Origin: Dictyostelium discoideum | Lineage: Eukaryota | Length of the DNA stretch: 4,957 bases | Direction of reading: 5' to 3' | Assembly (NCBI GenBank): GCA_000004695.1 | Contig: CH709151.1 | Location: forward strand, 1-4,957 | Part shown: positions 1-4,957 of the stretch, one piece after another | How positions within the stretch are numbered: position 1 is the stretch's first letter | How the letters are laid out: each line of letters opens with the position of its first letter | Notes under the pieces: generated by a model | Databases searched by the model: none | What the model was told of the DNA's origin: nothing | The model's input: only the letters and a program-made list of their open reading frames with translations | Position numbers and translations under genes: made by a program

Positions 1-408
1 GCGACGTTCACTTGGAAGTTAGATGGAAAGTTGAATACTTTATTCAATTCGGATATCTCATCTTTCTTGAGGATACATTCTTCTTCGACGAGTAAACCTT
101 GATTGTTTACCATATGTTTGTACTGACCAAGTAAAGTATCGGATAATTGATAATCGGTTGGAACATCGACATTGTTACTTGATTCATCATCACTTTGTTC
201 ATTCTCGGTGTCAGAGTTATCATGAGAAGGTTGGTTATGTGAATTGGTATTAGATGAGAACATAGGTTCTTTCATGAATCTTGTAAAGGCTAAAGAAAGG
301 TTGTTGATTTGATCCTCCATTGATTTCATTCTTAAATCAAAGGATTCAGCGCTATTAGAGGCAGAGGTACTACTCGAGGTATAATTATTATTAACAGGGG
401 TAGACATA
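1..408 (-). CDS. DIRS-1-type retrotransposon ORF1 (putative GAG-like protein), N-terminal 136 codons of copy A; partial, runs off window start
   Basis: The reverse complement of 1..408 translates uninterrupted as MSTPVNNNYTSSSTSASNSAESFDLRMKSMEDQINNLSLAFTRFMKEPMFSSNTNSHNQPSHDNSDTENEQSDDESSNNVDVPTDYQLSDTLLGQYKHMVNNQGLLVEEECILKKDEISELNKVFNFPSNFQVNVA. This is near-identical to the N-terminus of the intact 335-aa ORF at 3223..4230. Differences are a 3-bp indel and a few substitutions clustered in the first 10 codons and around codons 58-59. The ATG is at 408..406 on the minus strand. Confidence 0.8.
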
Positions 409-862
409 TTTTATTGTTGATATCTAAAATTATAATGGGAGAAAAATAATAATATTAAAAATTAATAAAGAGAAATAATTATTTGTATAAAATTTGTGTG
501 TGTGTGTATCTTAAATATATATAGGAGGAATTCCCAAATAAAATAAATCAAATTGTTTTAAGTTTTTAGTGCCACTATTTATACCGTTTTTATTTTCTTA
601 AAAATTTCGCAAAACTCAAAAAAATAAGGGTTTTCGACCCTTCACAACTTTGTGCATTGTGTCGGGTTCGGAATTTTTCAGTTTTTCGACCTTGCGGTAA
701 TGATCCCGTCATTGTGCCGGTTCGAAATTTTTTACTTTTCTTTCGAAAATTTTTTATTCTTCGAATGTTCTAGAACATTCTAAAAAATTATCTTAAATAT
801 TGGGAAATTCAAATAAATAAATGTTATTCATAATATATATATATATATATGATAATATAAAT
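409..862 (-). repeat. Left inverted-terminal-repeat/5' leader region of DIRS-1 copy A
   Basis: Non-coding AT-rich leader between the element terminus and the ORF1 ATG. It contains GAAnnTTC heat-shock arrays, a (TG)6-7 tract at 495..507, a TATA-like tatttatac (reverse complement) at ~571..583, and an (AT)n run at 828..848. It is mirrored in 2775..3222. Confidence 0.7.
757..780. promoter_or_regulatory. Heat-shock element: perfect alternating TTC/GAA array (ttcTTCGAAtgTTCtaGAAcaTTC) in the copy A leader
   Basis: The sequence shows at least four contiguous inverted nGAAn units with 2-bp spacing, the canonical HSE architecture. DIRS-1 is known to be heat-shock inducible from its ITR. Further TTCGAA / TTCnnGAA units lie at 721..727 and 743..748. 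Confidence 0.6.
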
Positions 863-1054
863 GATTGAAAGGAACTCTCTATCACCTATGCTGTACCTCT
901 TTTGAGTGTCAGTAAGTTTTCTACTGTGGAACCAAATGACTTTGAATTTATCACCTTGAATTTGATATAATACACCTGATAATGCTTTATCACTAACATC
1001 ACAATACAAGTGAAAACTACCCTTTTCAGAAGTTCCGTTTAAAAAATGTTGCAT
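863..1054 (-). pseudogene. Fragment of an LTR-retroelement-type (Ty3/gypsy, DIRS or BEL-like) RNase H domain; truncated at both ends
   Basis: The minus-strand ORF 824..1054 reads MQHFLNGTSEKGSFHLYCDVSDKALSGVLYQIQGDKFKVIWFHSRKLTDTQKRYSIGDREFLSI. It carries the canonical RNase H motifs of retroviral/LTR-type Pol proteins: (Y/F)-x-D-A/V-S-D-x-x-x-G-x-V-L-x-Q, then h-x-(F/Y)-x-S-R-K-L-x-x-x-E/Q-x-x-Y-S-x-x-(E/D)-(K/R)-E-x-L-x-I. The trailing IIYIIIYIYIYYE is readthrough into the (AT)n of the DIRS terminus. A stop lies 11 codons upstream of the Met, inside the tRNA-like sequence, so this is an orphan internal fragment. Confidence 0.55.
1041..1046 (-). terminator. Oligo(T)6 RNA polymerase III terminator immediately 3' of the tRNA-like unit
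   Basis: aaaaaa at 1041..1046 on the plus strand gives a T6 run on the minus strand, one nucleotide after the predicted discriminator base. Confidence 0.45.
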
Positions 1055-1119
1055 ATGGGAATCGAACCCGTGACCTCTTACATTCTAAGCTATCTATCTA
1101 CCATATGAGCTAAATAAGC
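1047..1119 (-). tRNA. tRNA-like Pol III unit (probable degenerate tRNA gene or pseudogene; anticodon not assignable)
   Basis: The minus strand reads GCTTATTTAGCTCATATGGTAGATAGATAGCTTAGAATGTAAGAGGTCACGGGTTCGATTCCCATATGCAACA. Residues 8-19 form a good A box (TAGCTCAtaTGG versus TRGCnnAGTGG). Residues 52-62 form a perfect B box (GGTTCGATTCC). An AGGTC variable-loop signature is present, the T-arm pairs ACGGG with CCCAT (4 of 5 pairs), and the overall length is a canonical 73 nt. TTTTTT follows directly. However, the 5' acceptor half (GCTTATT) cannot pair with the 3' half (ATGCAAC), no 5-bp anticodon stem forms, and (TAGA)3 slippage sits in the D-arm. Confidence 0.4.
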
Positions 1120-1167: not shown

Positions 1168-1234
1168 TGAGTAAGAAAAAAAACATCAACAACAACAACA
1201 TTTTTCATATAAAAAAAAGACTTAAAAATAAAAT
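1168..1234 (+). repeat. Direct repeat copy 1 (tgAGTAAGAAAAAAAACATCAACAACAACAACATTTTTCATATAAAAAAAAGACTTAAAAAT); putative leader (A-module-like) repeat of a TRE5-type element
   Basis: About 60 bp is near-identical to 1345..1431. It starts 49-51 bp upstream of the 5' end (1119) of the tRNA-like unit. Confidence 0.7.
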
Positions 1235-1300
1235 AAAATACACAAAGAGTAAATCATTGTACTTCTTTATTTTATTGTAATTTATTTTTTCTTTTTTTTT

Positions 1301-1325
1301 GAAAATTTTGCGAAGCAAAATTTTC
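1301..1325. repeat. Perfect 11-bp stem / 3-nt loop hairpin (gaaaattttgc gaa gcaaaattttc) between the two direct repeats
   Basis: Exact reverse-complement arms are read directly from the sequence. Confidence 0.5.
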
Positions 1326-1344
1326 AAAAAAAAGGAAAAAATAA

Positions 1345-1431
1345 TCAGTAAGAAAAAAAACATCAACAACAACAACATTTTTTATTTGATTATTTCATTT
1401 TTCATATAAAAAAAAGACTTGAAAAAATTAA
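1345..1431 (+). repeat. Direct repeat copy 2, with a ~20-bp internal insertion/duplication (ttatttgattatttcattt)
   Basis: Same sequence as 1168..1234, 177 bp further on. With the insertion, the repeat period is ~178-199 bp. Confidence 0.7.
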
Positions 1432-1613
1432 ATCTCTATACGTATCTAGTAATACAATAGTAATAGTTGCAAATCAGGATGGACAGGAGTTCACACCGAC
1501 AGCATTCAAGTAGTTAGGGATGCTAGTAATTCATTCAAACAAAAATAAAAAATTCCACTATTATTAGTATTACATCAAAATTTCCAGTTGATCACAAAGA
1601 ATATCTCACAACA

Positions 1614-2378
1614 ATGTCCACTGAGTTAAAAAATAAATTCATCAAATGTGAACCAGGAATCAACCATTCTACCTTTACCTTTATCGGAGTAAACACTGAA
1701 TGGGAACCAGAATCTAAAATAAAAGCACTTAACGACTTCACTGTTATAAATATCACTAAATGGAAAATTTTAAAATATAAAGAATCTATGGCCAAAGAAG
1801 AAAAAACCAATGAAAAACAAACATCCCAATCAACACAACAAACACATCAAACTCAACCTAATCAACATACTGAACAAGTTCAAATAATCCAAAATAATAT
1901 AAAAAATTTAACCGAACAAGAGCTAGCTGAATTAATTTTCAACAACCCACAAGAGGCTGAACAAGAAAAAGAAATCATTAAGGAGTTCCAACAACAAAAA
2001 ATTCAAAACCAAAACAAACAAGAAACAAATAATAGTGACAATACATCTTTCACCTCTCCACCCAAAGATAAAGATGAACCATCACTCAATTTAAGTTCTC
2101 AATTCGAAGTTAGCATTTCTACTCAAGAAATAAACACTATGCTTAATACTGACTTTATCTTTGATGACTCTTCACCAATACCAAATAAATTATTAGAGCT
2201 GATTTCACCTGAACCAATTGTTTTTAGCATCAGAGAATTGGATTCTCCAACTAAAGATAACATACTAAATGAACTACTATATCAACCAGAACAATCAATT
2301 TATGTTCCTCCTCCTCCTCCCTCCTCCCCCTCCACCCCAATTAAACAAACCAAGCAGACTAACAAAAATAAGTGGTAG
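1614..2378 (+). CDS. Hypothetical N/Q/P-rich protein, probably ORF1 of the TRE5-like element; terminates prematurely relative to a +1-frame continuation (frameshift in a CCT/poly-Pro tract)
   Basis: A 254-aa ORF with amoeba-style codon usage. It has a structured N-terminus (MSTELKNKFIKCEPGINHSTFTFIGVNTEWEPESKIKALNDFTVINITKWKILKY) followed by Q/N/T-rich low complexity and a PPPPPSSPSTP tract. A stop occurs 40 nt after the cctcctcctcctccctcctccccctccacccc run at 2306..2337. Confidence 0.55.
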   Translation: MSTELKNKFIKCEPGINHSTFTFIGVNTEWEPESKIKALNDFTVINITKWKILKYKESMAKEEKTNEKQTSQSTQQTHQTQPNQHTEQVQIIQNNIKNLTEQELAELIFNNPQEAEQEKEIIKEFQQQKIQNQNKQETNNSDNTSFTSPPKDKDEPSLNLSSQFEVSISTQEINTMLNTDFIFDDSSPIPNKLLELISPEPIVFSIRELDSPTKDNILNELLYQPEQSIYVPPPPPSSPSTPIKQTKQTNKNKW

Positions 2379-2583
2379 ACCAAAATTCAACATTAAACAA
2401 AAAAACATTAAAACGATCGAAGAAAATATAGAGGAACACCTCAAAGATTCTTTAAATAACTCATCAGAAACAATATCAACAAAGAGAAAATACCAGGAGG
2501 AGCCAAATCAAGAGAATGACCTCGAACAAATATCCACAATTATGAACAACAATTTACAAAAACTTATCAATCTCACTAACTAA
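2269..2583 (+). CDS. Probable C-terminal continuation of the same ORF1 in the +1 frame (real coding likely only downstream of the poly-Pro tract, ~2340..2583); the N-terminal MNYYINQNNQFMFLLLL part is out-of-frame overlap
   Basis: Past the proline tract the +1 frame stays open and reads LNKPSRLTKISGRPKFNIKQKNIKTIEENIEEHLKDSLNNSSETISTKRKYQEEPNQENDLEQISTIMNNNLQKLINLTN. It ends exactly at the TAATG overlap with the endonuclease-like ORF start, which argues it is genuine coding sequence displaced by a 1-nt indel. Confidence 0.4.
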   Translation: MNYYINQNNQFMFLLLLPPPPPPQLNKPSRLTKISGRPKFNIKQKNIKTIEENIEEHLKDSLNNSSETISTKRKYQEEPNQENDLEQISTIMNNNLQKLINLTN

Positions 2584-2699
2584 TGAACACAATTAAGATA
2601 GCAATCTGGAACGCCCAAGGACACAGCAAAGAAAAATGCACCTTTAAAGCCAATTTAAAGCAAATTCAATTTAAATTTGCTTTAAATTGGCTTTAAATT
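2583..2699 (+). pseudogene. Truncated 5' remnant of a non-LTR ORF2 (endonuclease-domain N-terminal motif); about 20 meaningful codons, then the frame runs into hairpin repeats
   Basis: It translates as MNTIKIAIWNAQGHSKEKCTFKANLKQIQFKFALNWL*. The I-A-I-W-N-x-x-G segment matches the conserved first motif of the exonuclease-endonuclease-phosphatase domain. From ~2640 the sequence is a palindromic minisatellite, so the domain is deleted. Confidence 0.35.
2643..2697. repeat. Perfect 24-bp inverted repeat (tttaaagccaatttaaagcaaatt / aatttgctttaaattggctttaaa) with a 7-nt loop; built from tandem tttaaagc units
   Basis: Arms 2643..2666 and 2674..2697 are exact reverse complements, counted base by base. 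The loop is caattta at 2667..2673. Confidence 0.8.
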
Positions 2700-2733
2700 T
2701 GCTTTTTAAAAAGGTGATTTTAAAGATATTTTT

Positions 2734-2766
2734 AAGGTCGTTTAAAATTACATTAAAAATGACCTT
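2734..2766. repeat. Second hairpin (aaggtcgttt ... aaatgacctt): 10-bp stem with one G-T mismatch, 13-nt loop
   Basis: Read from the sequence. It lies 36 bp after the first hairpin and 8 bp before the DIRS copy B terminus. Confidence 0.5.
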
Positions 2767-2855
2767 TTAAATTTATTTATATTATCATATATATATATAT
2801 ATTATGAATAACATTTATTTATTTGAATTTCCCAAATATTTAAGATAATTTTTTA

Positions 2856-2879
2856 GAATGTTCTAGAACATTCGAAGAA
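2856..2879. promoter_or_regulatory. Heat-shock element array (GAAtgTTCtaGAAcaTTCGAAGAA) in the copy B leader
   Basis: Alternating GAA/TTC units at 2-bp spacing. This is the counterpart of 757..780. Confidence 0.6.
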
Positions 2880-3048
2880 TAAAAAATTTTCGAAAGAAAA
2901 GTAAAAATTTCGAACCGGCACAATGACGCGATAATTGCGCAAGGTCGAAAAACTGAAAAATTCCGAACCGACACTATGCACAAATTTGTGAAGGGTCGAA
3001 AACTCTTATTTTTTTGAGTTTTGCGAAATTTTTAAGAAAATAAAAACG

Positions 3049-3056
3049 TATAAATA
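3049..3056 (+). promoter_or_regulatory. TATA box (tataaata) ~170 bp upstream of the ORF1 ATG
   Basis: A canonical TATAAATA lies ~170 bp downstream of the HSE array in a slightly GC-richer context (cgtataaatagtggcac). The inverted counterpart is at ~571..583. Confidence 0.4.
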
Positions 3057-3222
3057 GTGGCACTAAAAACTAAAACAATTTGATTTATTTTATTTGGGAA
3101 TTCCTCCTATATATATTTAAGATACACACACACACAAATTTTATACAAATAATTATTTCTCTTTATTAATTTTTATTATTATTTTTTTCTCATATTATAA
3201 TTTTAGATATCAACAATAAAAT

Positions 3223-4230
3223 ATGTCTACCACTGTTAATAATAACGAAGCCTCTAGTAGTAGTACCTCTGCCTCTAATAGCGCTGAATCCTTTGATTTA
3301 AGAATGAAATCAATGGAAGATCAAATCAACAACCTTTCCTTAGCCTTTACAAGATTCATGAAAGAACCTATGTTCTCTTCTAATACCAATTCAAGTAGCC
3401 AACCTTCTCATGATAACTCTGACACCGAGAATGAACAAAGTGAAGATGAATCAAGTAACAATGTCGATGTTCCAACCGATTATCAATTATCCGATACCTT
3501 ACTTGGTCAGTACAAACATATGGTAAACAATCAAGGTTTACTCGTCGAAGAAGAATGTATCCTCAAGAAAGATGAGATATCCGAATTGAATAAAGTATTC
3601 AACTTTCCATCTAACTTCCAAGTGAATGTCGCTCCATTCGGTACACCTGAAGGTATTACTGTATCATCCAACGTCAAGAACAATGATACTGACTTGTTGA
3701 TTGTCGAAAAGCGAATCAACGATAGCTTGAAACCTTTGCTTCTCATGTCAAGTATGTTATCATCTGATAGCTCTAATGTCGATGTAGAACTTATTAGTTA
3801 CTTAACTCAGAGTGCAATCGTCTTAGCCGTTAATGCTCAAGCATCGCTTAGTCGTGTCCGTCGTAACAACATCGCTAAAGAAATCTATGGTTCTGAAGTA
3901 CTCTTACCAATTAAGATCAAGGATACACCAAAGATGTTTGATGAAACTGAAACTGAACGTGTAAGAAAGCTAGCCAAGTCAATCAGAAAGAACAACGAAG
4001 CTAAACAATCATTGTTAAAATTGAATTATCATTCCAAGTCCAATGTCAAGAAATCAGTTAACTCAAGTGGTAATAACACTACAGGAAACAGTAGTAATAG
4101 TAAATCCAGTAGTGGGAGTAATGGCCGATCTAACAACTTCAATGGATCACCAAGTAATGTTGCATCAGGTAGCAACAATACCAAGTCTGCCAACGGTACC
4201 AACAACCGTTTTCAGAAGAACAAGAAGTAA
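3223..4230 (+). CDS. DIRS-1-type ORF1 (putative GAG-like protein), complete, 335 aa
   Basis: An intact ORF that begins directly after the leader. It is S/N-rich at both ends with a unique central region. The minus-strand ORF at window positions 1..408 reproduces its N-terminus. Confidence 0.85.
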   Translation: MSTTVNNNEASSSSTSASNSAESFDLRMKSMEDQINNLSLAFTRFMKEPMFSSNTNSSSQPSHDNSDTENEQSEDESSNNVDVPTDYQLSDTLLGQYKHMVNNQGLLVEEECILKKDEISELNKVFNFPSNFQVNVAPFGTPEGITVSSNVKNNDTDLLIVEKRINDSLKPLLLMSSMLSSDSSNVDVELISYLTQSAIVLAVNAQASLSRVRRNNIAKEIYGSEVLLPIKIKDTPKMFDETETERVRKLAKSIRKNNEAKQSLLKLNYHSKSNVKKSVNSSGNNTTGNSSNSKSSSGSNGRSNNFNGSPSNVASGSNNTKSANGTNNRFQKNKK

Positions 4231-4957
4231 ACTTACCAGTAGGTGGACGTCTGTTCCACCACAAACAAGTTTGGAAAGAATTGGGTCTTCCAAACTTTTG
4301 TCAAGAGTTCGTAAATGGATTAAAAATCCATCTGCTTCCAAATTTCAAGCCGATGCTAAACCCAATTCCGATTTCAATTCCGGAGGGTCCGAAATCAGAT
4401 TGCATCACAAAGGAAGTACAAGACTTGTTATTAGACGATGCCATCGAACAAGTACTTCCAAACCGTTATTCAAAGCGCGTTTTTTACTCCAACGTGTTTA
4501 CGGTTCCAAAACCTGGAACGAATCTACATCGTCCAGTTCTAGATTTAAAAAGGTTAAACACTTACATCAACAACCAATCATTCAAGATGGAAGGAATCAA
4601 GAATCTACCATCAATGGTCAAACAAGGTTATTACATGGTAAAACTCGATATCAAGAAAGCCTACCTCCACGTATTAGTAGATCCACAATACAGAGACTTA
4701 TTCCGCTTCGTGTGGAAAGGTTCGCACTACCGTTGGAAAACAATGCCGTTCGGGCTATCGACAGCTCCTCGTATCTTTACAATGCTGTTAAGACCTGTAC
4801 TTCGAATGTTGAGAGATATCAAGGTATCCGTCATCGCTTACTTGGACGATCTATTAATCGTAGGTTCAACAAAAGAAGAATGTTTATCCAACTTCAAAAA
4901 GACAATGGAATTACTTGTCAAACTAGGTTTCAAGTTAAACCTAGAAAAGAGTGTTCT
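4173..4957 (+). CDS. DIRS-1-type ORF2 N-terminal part: reverse transcriptase (open in frame 3 from 4173; first in-frame ATG at 4353); partial at window end
   Basis: The frame-3 translation contains VFTVPKPGTNLHRPVLDLKRLN, YYMVKLDIKKAYLHV, KTMPFGLSTAPRIFT and VIAYLDDLLIVG. These are RT motifs 1/2, A, B and C (YLDD). The open frame overlaps the ORF1 stop by 57 nt. It is missing from the supplied ORF track because it has no stop inside the window. Confidence 0.8.

Follow-up and report, generated by a model that had tools for sequence, protein, structure and literature searches.

Does the segment at positions 1169-2774 represent a single internally deleted retrotransposon or the remains of several elements? 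The window, that is, the whole stretch of DNA analysed here, is an unplaced contig of 4957 bp of the AX4 reference genome of Dictyostelium discoideum, with an exact match to an AX4 protein, and it consists of repeats throughout, including two near-identical inverted DIRS-1 arms. An earlier note had proposed an ORF2-deleted element of the TRE5-A.2/.3 kind, joined to its own 3' end. As judged by comparison with five other TRE5 copies (L001 to L005), the region is very probably nested transposon debris, in which a TRE5-C-type remnant was hit by a second element, here called X, and then by DIRS-1, rather than one deletion derivative.

The central segment is enclosed by DIRS-1. The left copy (1-862, minus strand) comprises the left inverted terminal repeat and the start of ORF1, reading leftwards, and its terminus adjoins the central segment. 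The right copy (2775-4957, plus strand) comprises the left inverted terminal repeat, ORF1 (3223-4230) and the start of the next ORF, and it truncates X. The two copies pair through the inverted-repeat arms 1-374/3259-3632 (98%), 443-566/3065-3188 (97%) and 835-862/2775-2802 (100%). On either side the central segment meets a DIRS-1 5' end, and the role of DIRS-1 is confined to setting the right-hand boundary. Insertions nested within other repeats are a typical feature of DIRS-1 clusters (PMC3950715, PMC2665215). Beside the left copy, a retroelement RNase H domain fragment (845-1042, minus strand), truncated on the tRNA side, matched the Pfam families RT_RNaseH_2 (E = 4e-16) and RT_RNaseH (E = 1e-13), with 22-91 of the 100 profile positions covered; when the retrieved loci were searched with this fragment by tBLASTN, the window itself was the only match.

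A degenerate tRNA-like locus with A and B boxes was read from the sequence at 1047-1120 on the minus strand. Positions 1058-1068, read as the complement, give the B box GGTTCGATTCC, and 1041-1046 form a T6 terminator. The locus lies below the thresholds of both programs used: ARAGORN called no tRNA in this segment, and Rfam gave sub-threshold matches only, to the tRNA clan and to Plastid-ycf2, the latter effectively an antisense tRNA. The TRE5 remnant starts at 1169, head-to-head with this locus on the opposite strand, and is separated from the tRNA-like 5' end (1120) by a spacer of 48 bp (1121-1168), close to the 49-51 bp given in the earlier note for the start of the repeats. TRE5 elements in general integrate ~50 bp upstream of tRNA genes or A/B-box loci, always in this orientation. 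The corresponding spacing is 48 bp in L001 (tRNA-Lys) and 44 bp in L002 (tRNA-Glu). As reported previously, the 5' end of TRE5-A always faces the tRNA 5' end (PMC5391098). The proposal of a TRE5-type element in canonical position and orientation upstream of a tRNA-like locus is thus supported, as are its leader repeats of the A-module type, the frameshift in ORF1 and the beginning of ORF2.

The direct repeats of ~60 bp with a 177-bp period described for the leader were also recovered (1155-1208/1332-1385, 89%; 1199-1228/1396-1425). They represent one A-module and, behind it, the A-like beginning of a further module, an arrangement common to L001, L002 and L005. By alignment, the A-module (1169-1346, plus strand, 178 bp) has a 22-bp internal deletion relative to the 206-207-bp units of its relatives, and its BLASTN identity was 91-95% to L001 and 82-94% to L002. 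Of the B-module that comes next, the A-like start (1347-1416, plus strand) is fused by a deletion straight to ORF1 at about codon 32. In L001, positions 9919-10094 contain poly(A), the half of the B-module that is not translated, and ORF1 codons 1-31, and their counterpart is absent from the window; this deletion of ~176 bp, with an ACTT/AAAAAA microhomology at its junction, accounts for the loss of the B-module leader and of about 31 codons of ORF1.

Compared with L001 by alignment and by translation in three frames, the upstream part of ORF1 (1417-1613, plus strand) corresponds to about codons 32-99 of L001 ORF1; it is broken by stop codons and by deletions of 1 nt (~1464) and 4 nt (~1536). 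Because ORF1 homology reaches upstream to 1417, the ATG at 1614 is an internal Met. The open remainder of 254 aa (1614-2378, plus strand) is annotated as "hypothetical protein" DDB_G0294178 / XP_628808, as shown by an exact database match. This protein was 62% identical in amino acids to P0002 and 49% to P0003, and a Pfam search with it returned no domains. Note that the protein-database matches numbered three for ORF1 and two for the endonuclease domain, in a database nearly devoid of D. discoideum transposon proteins. The C-terminal part of ORF1 follows in the +1 frame (2299-2583, plus strand), beginning with a frameshift zone in a Pro tract (2299-2340) and ending with TAA at 2581-2583. The previous description of a 254-aa ORF1 that continues in the +1 frame was thus correct as far as 2583 and incomplete on the upstream side. 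Given that the frame changes at the Pro tract in all three TRE5-C-type copies, a programmed +1 frameshift was considered; it was rejected because the shifts differ in position and sign, being +1 in the window, -1 farther downstream in L001 and -1 farther upstream in L002. The overlap of the ORF1 stop with the next ATG was confirmed (TAA 2581-2583, ATG 2583-2585). The ORF1/ORF2 overlap in the relatives is ATGA, and in an allele carried by other strains a 4-nt deletion destroys the overlap.

The five copies were assigned to TRE5-A, -B or -C by matching published descriptors and not by alignment to reference TRE5 or Repbase sequences. On this basis, L003 and L004 are classed as TRE5-A, since their 3' B-module carries an ORF1 start with Ile at position 10 (MKITNNTTNI in L004), and their C-modules have T15, C26, A35 and C38 (numbering from the 3' end), the very residues that were mutated in PMC3159450. 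L005 is classed as TRE5-B, having no C-module and an ORF1 weakly related to that of TRE5-A. L001 and L002 are classed as TRE5-C, with a C-module at the 3' end and no 3' B-module. Their C-modules are 71-77% identical to the TRE5-A C-module and have a hairpin 3 nt shorter, which fits the terminal hairpin regions of 51 and 54 nt in PMC3159450, the 51-nt value being that of TRE5-C. TRE5-C is a tRNA gene-targeted non-LTR retrotransposon of D. discoideum (Glockner et al. 2001, as described in PMC3159450).

The window copy groups with L001 and L002. Its ORF1 is 85.9% identical in nucleotides to L001 and 74% to L002, and these two are 75% identical to each other; it shares with them the head-to-head site ~48 bp upstream of a tRNA or tRNA-like locus, the A-module with the A-like B-module start, and the ORF2 N-terminus. 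On the other hand, the window copy is heavily decayed and truncated, with the B-module leader and ORF1 start deleted, three frameshifts in ORF1 and 13 ORF2 codons left, and it is 14-26% diverged from L001 and L002; its own 3' end, and hence the defining C-module, is absent from the contig. BLASTP of the ORF1 of the window and of L002 against the TRE5-A ORF1 parts of L003 and L004 gave E > 1 or no match, so that the assignment to a TRE5-A derivative did not survive the comparison.

A TRE5 element has two ORFs, the second of which codes for an APE endonuclease, RT and a zinc finger. In the window copy ORF2 is reduced to its first 13 codons, MNTIKIAIWNAQG (2583-2621, plus strand), the start of the endonuclease domain. 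The endonuclease-type motif seen here previously was supported by homology, as MNTIKIAIWNAQG matches the N-termini of ORF2 in L001 and L002. ORF2 of these two copies matched RVT_1 with E = 1e-32 and, weakly, Exo_endo_phos from residue 9 (E = 6e-4, below the Pfam cut-off). The loss of coding character was confirmed in part: homology to ORF2 stops after codon 13, at 2621/2622, and not after ~20 codons or at ~2640. Moreover, this truncation appears to be the insertion breakpoint of another transposon, and not a junction of ORF2 with the 3' end of the same element.

The sequence behind the breakpoint (2622-2774, plus strand) is a terminus of X. It starts with CACAGCAAAGAAAA, contains a hairpin with a 24-bp stem, and in reverse complement belongs to the 'right end' type among X termini. 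It was 82% identical to L001 17063-17220 (minus strand) over 157-159 nt, and local alignment gave 159 against the X end and at most 22 against five stretches from 3' ends, of which four are C-modules, indicating that the tail is not a C-module as had been supposed. The X terminus follows the pattern CACAGCAA[A/T]GAAAA and then a TTTAAA-rich sub-terminal region, and positions 2622-2635 match it exactly. The GA at 2620-2621 that flanks the tail is how a TC duplication would read on the opposite strand; a single X end lies in the window, the other being cut off by DIRS-1. The tail is strongly structured (DNA fold z = -7.25), so that its description as hairpin-rich holds; however, the non-coding stretch up to the DIRS-1 terminus at 2775 is 153 bp and not exactly 134 bp. 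The figure of 134 bp is a coincidence, because a start at 2640 is arbitrary and X is cut by DIRS-1 at 2775, and it illustrates that an expected number, here the length of the C-module, can be met by an arbitrary boundary. The match in L001 was also considered as a reverse-oriented C-module; this was dropped, as the true C-modules were identified and X was found as a bounded insertion. At 2632-2708, every Rfam miRNA match to the hairpin was far below its gathering score, which points to a generic AT-rich hairpin.

Two complete copies of X were found in the other loci. In L001, X occupies 15130-17218 (2089 bp), has perfect 26-bp inverted ends and is bordered by TC on either side; once it is removed, ORF2 is back in frame and aligns to L002 without a break. 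In L005, X occupies 5626-6378 (753 bp), also with inverted ends and TC on either side, and splits the TRE5-B ORF1. All five X termini from L001, L005 and the window align from the same first base, whereas the flanks are unrelated; of the five TRE5 copies examined, three have X in an ORF. X has no ORF, varies in size between these copies, and has AT-rich structured sub-terminal regions; its ends are asymmetric, the long hairpin being present at one end only. On the window strand, the opposite end of X would read ...TTTGCTGTG and be followed by GA.

TRE5 integration proceeds by target-primed reverse transcription, and the ORF1 protein contacts TFIIIB. The probable history of the locus begins with a TRE5-C-type non-LTR retrotransposon, which integrated head-to-head with a tRNA gene, ~48 bp on its upstream side; the target gene has since degenerated. 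The TRE5 copy then decayed through the 22-bp A-module deletion, the three ORF1 frameshifts and the ~176-bp microhomology deletion that joined the A-like B-module start to ORF1 at about codon 32. X, a non-autonomous inverted-repeat element, probably inserted next into ORF2 behind codon 13, and a DIRS-1 copy probably inserted into X later, or recombined there, at 2775. In this account the homologies, the breakpoints, the two complete X copies with their target duplications and the occurrence of the locus in other strains are observed; we infer the order of events and the family labels. Because of the DIRS-1 insertion or recombination at 2775, the rest of X and the whole 3' part of TRE5 are missing from the contig. 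A TRE5 3' end, with its oligo(A) and flanking target-site duplication, was thus not found on the contig, where X and then DIRS-1 follow 2621; the loss of this whole end explains why oligo(A) is absent, and it does not speak against TRE5. Mobilisation in trans requires the C-module (PMC3159450). Since ORF2 and the 3' C-module, which is needed for reverse transcription, are missing, the copy could not be mobilised, even in trans, and has no function.

The proposal of a trans-mobilisable TRE5-A.2/.3-like element, with A-modules, ORF1, an ORF2 stub and a 134-bp C-module, draws on real features, namely the correct TRE5 position and orientation, the A-module repeats and the hairpin-rich tail. Published TRE5-A.2, a non-autonomous derivative of TRE5-A.1, has the structure AB-ORF1-BC with a C-module of 134-137 bp (PMC3159450), and the window resembles it superficially in the series of leader modules, ORF1 and a short non-coding tail, as well as in target preference. 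However, its ORF1 is unrelated to that of TRE5-A at the BLASTP level, no B-module copy follows the ORF2 stub, and the tail lacks similarity to C-modules of both the TRE5-A and the TRE5-C type. The tail begins exactly at the first base of X, an element known elsewhere with two ends and target duplications, and its length is 153 bp from the 2621/2622 breakpoint, with the right end set by the DIRS-1 insertion and not by a 3' terminus. TRE5-A.2 carries an internal ORF2 deletion, whereas ORF2 of the window is interrupted by another transposon. We therefore give this proposal hardly any credence. It is also highly improbable that an undescribed TRE5 sub-lineage gained the X-like tail as a 3' module through template switching or 3' transduction, in which case 2621/2622 would mark a joint formed by deletion or recombination. 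For the C-module of TRE5-A, PMC4559204 argues that 3' transduction was the probable source, and a single X end is visible in the window; but the joint coincides with the X terminus to the base, as expected of transposon insertion and not of random recombination, the GA beside the joint agrees with the TC/GA duplication of both complete X copies, and oligo(A) is absent. Furthermore, other copies sharing the 2621/2622 joint were not found, the Logan contigs being alleles of the same locus, which is present in other strains.

These contigs also bear on the idea that repeats were in part joined wrongly during assembly to give a chimera, for which the short, floating contig, its make-up of repeats and its two near-identical inverted arms of DIRS-1 could speak. 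The interval 1391-2650, with both internal TRE5 junctions (the ORF2/X junction and the 1415/1417 deletion junction), was recovered at 99.4-99.5% identity in Logan contigs assembled independently from 12 read sets. The DIRS-1 joins at 862/863 and 2774/2775 are outside this interval, so that an assembly artefact is conceivable there, with no bearing on what the TRE5 and X parts are. A chimera is accordingly improbable, and nested debris around a TRE5-C-type remnant is the preferred reading.

The remnant is an ordinary dead copy of a known tRNA-targeted family described in 2001, an already known kind, and as a dead nested copy in the most heavily studied Dictyostelium genome it has little biological weight. 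The DNA-transposon families described in D. discoideum are DDT-A/B/S, thug-S/T and Tdd-4/5, and X was set against these by description, not by sequence. X resembles non-autonomous inverted-repeat (MITE-like) DNA transposons in its ~26-bp inverted ends, the absence of an ORF and the short target duplication, and differs from Tc1/mariner, which duplicates TA, in duplicating TC. There is a small chance that X is an undescribed non-autonomous inverted-repeat family with asymmetric hairpin-bearing ends and an unusual 2-bp TC duplication and, separately, that the 14-26% divergence reflects several old TRE5-C sub-lineages. If absent from Repbase, the X termini would be useful for repeat annotation. 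Similarly, DDB_G0294178 / Q54AV6 is a truncated, frameshifted TRE5 ORF1 remnant, and the "hypothetical protein" entry needs a flag as transposon-derived. A sequence of the X terminus usable as a genome query is CACAGCAAWGAAAA.

A search with the conceptual ORF1 protein of the window gave three matches, namely the window's own protein, P0002 (62% identity) and P0003 (49%), the last two coming from another D. discoideum assembly, where they lie at loci L001 and L002, respectively. Both loci hold a full TRE5-type element oriented head-to-head with a tRNA gene, 48 bp upstream of tRNA-Lys in L001 and 44 bp upstream of tRNA-Glu in L002, with target-site duplications ggtcattgattttta and gtttcggtttcaa. 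From the 5' end, these elements begin with 206-207-bp A-modules, a partial A-like unit, poly(A), a leader of ~60 bp and the ORF1 ATG.

We typed the loci by the descriptors published in PMC3159450 and not by alignment to reference sequences. As described there, TRE5-A.1 has the structure AB-ORF1/ORF2-BC, with a 290-bp B-module that includes the ORF1 start and a C-module of 134-137 bp; the 3' B-module is absent from TRE5-B and TRE5-C, and the C-module is found in TRE5-A and TRE5-C and absent from TRE5-B. For the terminal hairpin region the lengths given are 54 nt (TRE5-A) and 51 nt (TRE5-C), ORF1 of TRE5-B is ~25% identical to that of TRE5-A, and the mutations made were I10* in ORF1 and, numbered from the 3' end, C38A, A35C, C26A and T15C (PMC3159450). 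Downstream of the ORF2 stop, L003 and L004 carry poly(A), then a B-module in which an ORF starts, and then ~130 bp running to ...CCAATTC(A)n; T15, C26, A35 and C38 are present counting from the 3' end, and the B-module ORF of L004 starts MKITNNTTNI, with Ile at position 10. On these descriptors, both were assigned to TRE5-A. L005, which lies upstream of tRNA-Thr, is without a C-module, has an ORF1 only weakly related to that of TRE5-A and was assigned to TRE5-B. L001 and L002 are without a 3' B-module, their C-module is 71-77% identical to that of TRE5-A, and its first hairpin is 3 nt shorter, fitting 51 versus 54 nt; they were assigned to TRE5-C. Nucleotide identity over the ORF1 region was 85.9% between the window and L001, 74% between the window and L002 and 75% between L001 and L002, and no significant similarity of window ORF1 to TRE5-A ORF1 was found. 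Because its ORF1 is thus near L001 and L002, the remnant within 1169-2774 (+) is, by sequence typing, of TRE5-C type and not a TRE5-A.2/.3 derivative.

The direct repeats of 177-bp period that the earlier note described in the leader are present, as are the 254-aa ORF1 with its +1-frame extension, which runs to 2583, and the overlap of the ORF1 stop with the next ATG as TAATG. The window's A-module corresponds to that of L001/L002 minus 22 bp and is followed by the A-like unit, which is fused straight to EKIKSLY at 1417 with ACTT/AAAAAA microhomology at the joint, the counterpart of L001 9919-10094 (poly(A), leader and ORF1 codons 1-31) being missing. ORF1 homology extends over 1417-1613, where stop codons and deletions of 1 and 4 nt disrupt it, so the annotated ATG at 1614 is an internal methionine. 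The ORF at 1614-2378 (254 aa) is exactly the AX4 hypothetical protein DDB_G0294178 (XP_628808, Q54AV6), known from this 4957-bp contig only and listed by NCBI and UniProt as uncharacterised; the protein corresponds to an inner stretch of a decayed TRE5 ORF1. In all three TRE5-C-type ORF1 copies the frame changes inside the same ~60-nt proline-tract of CCT/CCC codons (window 2299-2340; L001 ~11490-11560; L002 ~11090-11130). Programmed frameshifting could be considered for such a shared location and is disfavoured, as the position and sign of the shift differ among the copies, which points to the tract being a mutational hotspot.

The ORF after TAATG opens MNTIKIAIWNAQG, and an ORF2 start is present as had been proposed, but similarity stops after codon 13 (2621/2622) rather than after ~20 codons. 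For this reason the tail is 153 bp long and not 134; its structured, non-coding character holds (DNA fold -36.4 kcal/mol, z = -7.25). The earlier note likened this tail to a C-module. In local alignment, however, it scored at most 22, a chance level, against five 3'-terminal stretches, four of the five being C-modules, versus 159 against one end of X, a non-coding inverted-repeat element. X came from a BLASTN match of window 2620-2777 to L001 17220-17063 in reverse orientation (82% identity), 2 kb past the apparent ORF2 end of L001. In L001, X is a 2089-bp non-coding insertion (15130-17218) that breaks the TRE5-C ORF2, whose inverted ends, CACAGCAAAGAAAATCACACCTTAAA, are perfect over 26 bp, with TC flanking each side; its removal, with one TC kept, made the alignment to L002 continuous and the ORF2 C-terminus open, the latter containing ISLQLERFSKQWNSPLH and ending at a stop codon. 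A 753-bp X in L005 (5626-6378), with inverted ends CACAGCAATGAAAA and likewise flanked by TC on each side, breaks the TRE5-B ORF1. When these four termini were aligned with the window, all five shared a common first base and had unrelated flanks. The terminus in the window starts at 2622, the exact stop of ORF2 homology, directly follows GA (complementary to TC), and resembles the right-end type of X, which has the long hairpin. In both complete copies the flanking TC is a 2-bp target duplication. The ends of X are asymmetric, a long hairpin occurring at one only, and of the five TRE5 copies studied X breaks three, that of the window among them. The tail stops at 2774 (with a 3-nt ambiguity) because the DIRS-1 terminal repeat starts at 2775, and the X terminus and this boundary together account for the 134-bp figure and the missing oligo(A) without a C-module.

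Logan contigs from 12 independent read sets are 99.4-99.5% identical to window 1391-2650 (or 1391-2626), and their span includes the deletion joint at 1415/1417 as well as the ORF2/X joint. They encode an identical 254-aa ORF and so share the proline-tract frameshift. Such alleles (L006-L008) show 2-3 substitutions relative to the window and lack 4 nt (ACTA) at the equivalent of 2575-2578, just ahead of the ORF1 stop, a deletion that abolishes the TAATG overlap; such differences are as would be expected for a neutrally drifting pseudogene common to strains.

[quoted passage not shown] The window copy keeps only a broken ORF1 and the A-module that bears the promoter, and on this background it can neither encode the machinery nor undergo copying in trans; judged from these features, it is inert debris within a DIRS-1-rich region. 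Overall, the observations and the interpretation of the earlier note hold in part, its TRE5-type reading being upheld and its C-module and TRE5-A.2-like derivative not. The element is a member of a known family in the reference genome, and X may already be catalogued.

The remnant is flanked by DIRS-1 copies at 1-862 (-) and 2775-4957 (+), mutually inverted and up to 98-100% complementary, which stand head-to-head, the 5' inverted terminal repeat of each pointing at the 1.9-kb central segment. The pair may have arisen by two separate insertions or by a rearrangement, or may reflect a join made during assembly; independent Logan coverage is limited to the internal joints, the outer DIRS-1 joins lying outside it. 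A retroelement RNase H fragment at 845-1042 (-) (Pfam RT_RNaseH_2, E = 4e-16) covers profile positions 22-91, and tRNA-like sequence takes the place of the first ~21; the fragment lies a few bases from the 3' end and terminator of the degenerate tRNA-like locus (~1047-1120, -), on the same strand, and may come from DIRS-1, Skipper or DGLT-A. A sub-threshold Rfam match to the Plastid-ycf2 5'UTR at 1049-1119 (+) was rejected as a real plastid feature (19.8 bits against a 65.7-bit cut-off) and most likely arises from the resemblance of that family to a reverse-complemented tRNA.

Comparison of leader and B-module sequence (L001 9841-9960, L002 9832-9950, L005 4551-4750, L003 13090-13230 and L004 9128-9240) revealed that the TRE5-B and TRE5-C copies have a common 5' leader, GAAAAAAAACATCAACAACAACAAC...CATATAAAAAAAAGACTTA, poly(A), ...TTAATCAGA.AATTTCCA. 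The portion past the poly(A) is also found in the TRE5-A 3' B-module, and over its first ~85 bp the leader is similar to the A-module start. Upstream of tRNA-Lys in L001, the target motif (g)gtcattgattttt occurs in three copies (9629-9643, 17467-17481 and 17637-17650) flanking in turn the 7.8-kb TRE5-C copy, a 5'-truncated TRE5-A that is a solo C-module (~17515-17626) and an older A-module-like remnant. This arrangement suggests that TRE5 elements integrated one after another at the same tRNA gene.
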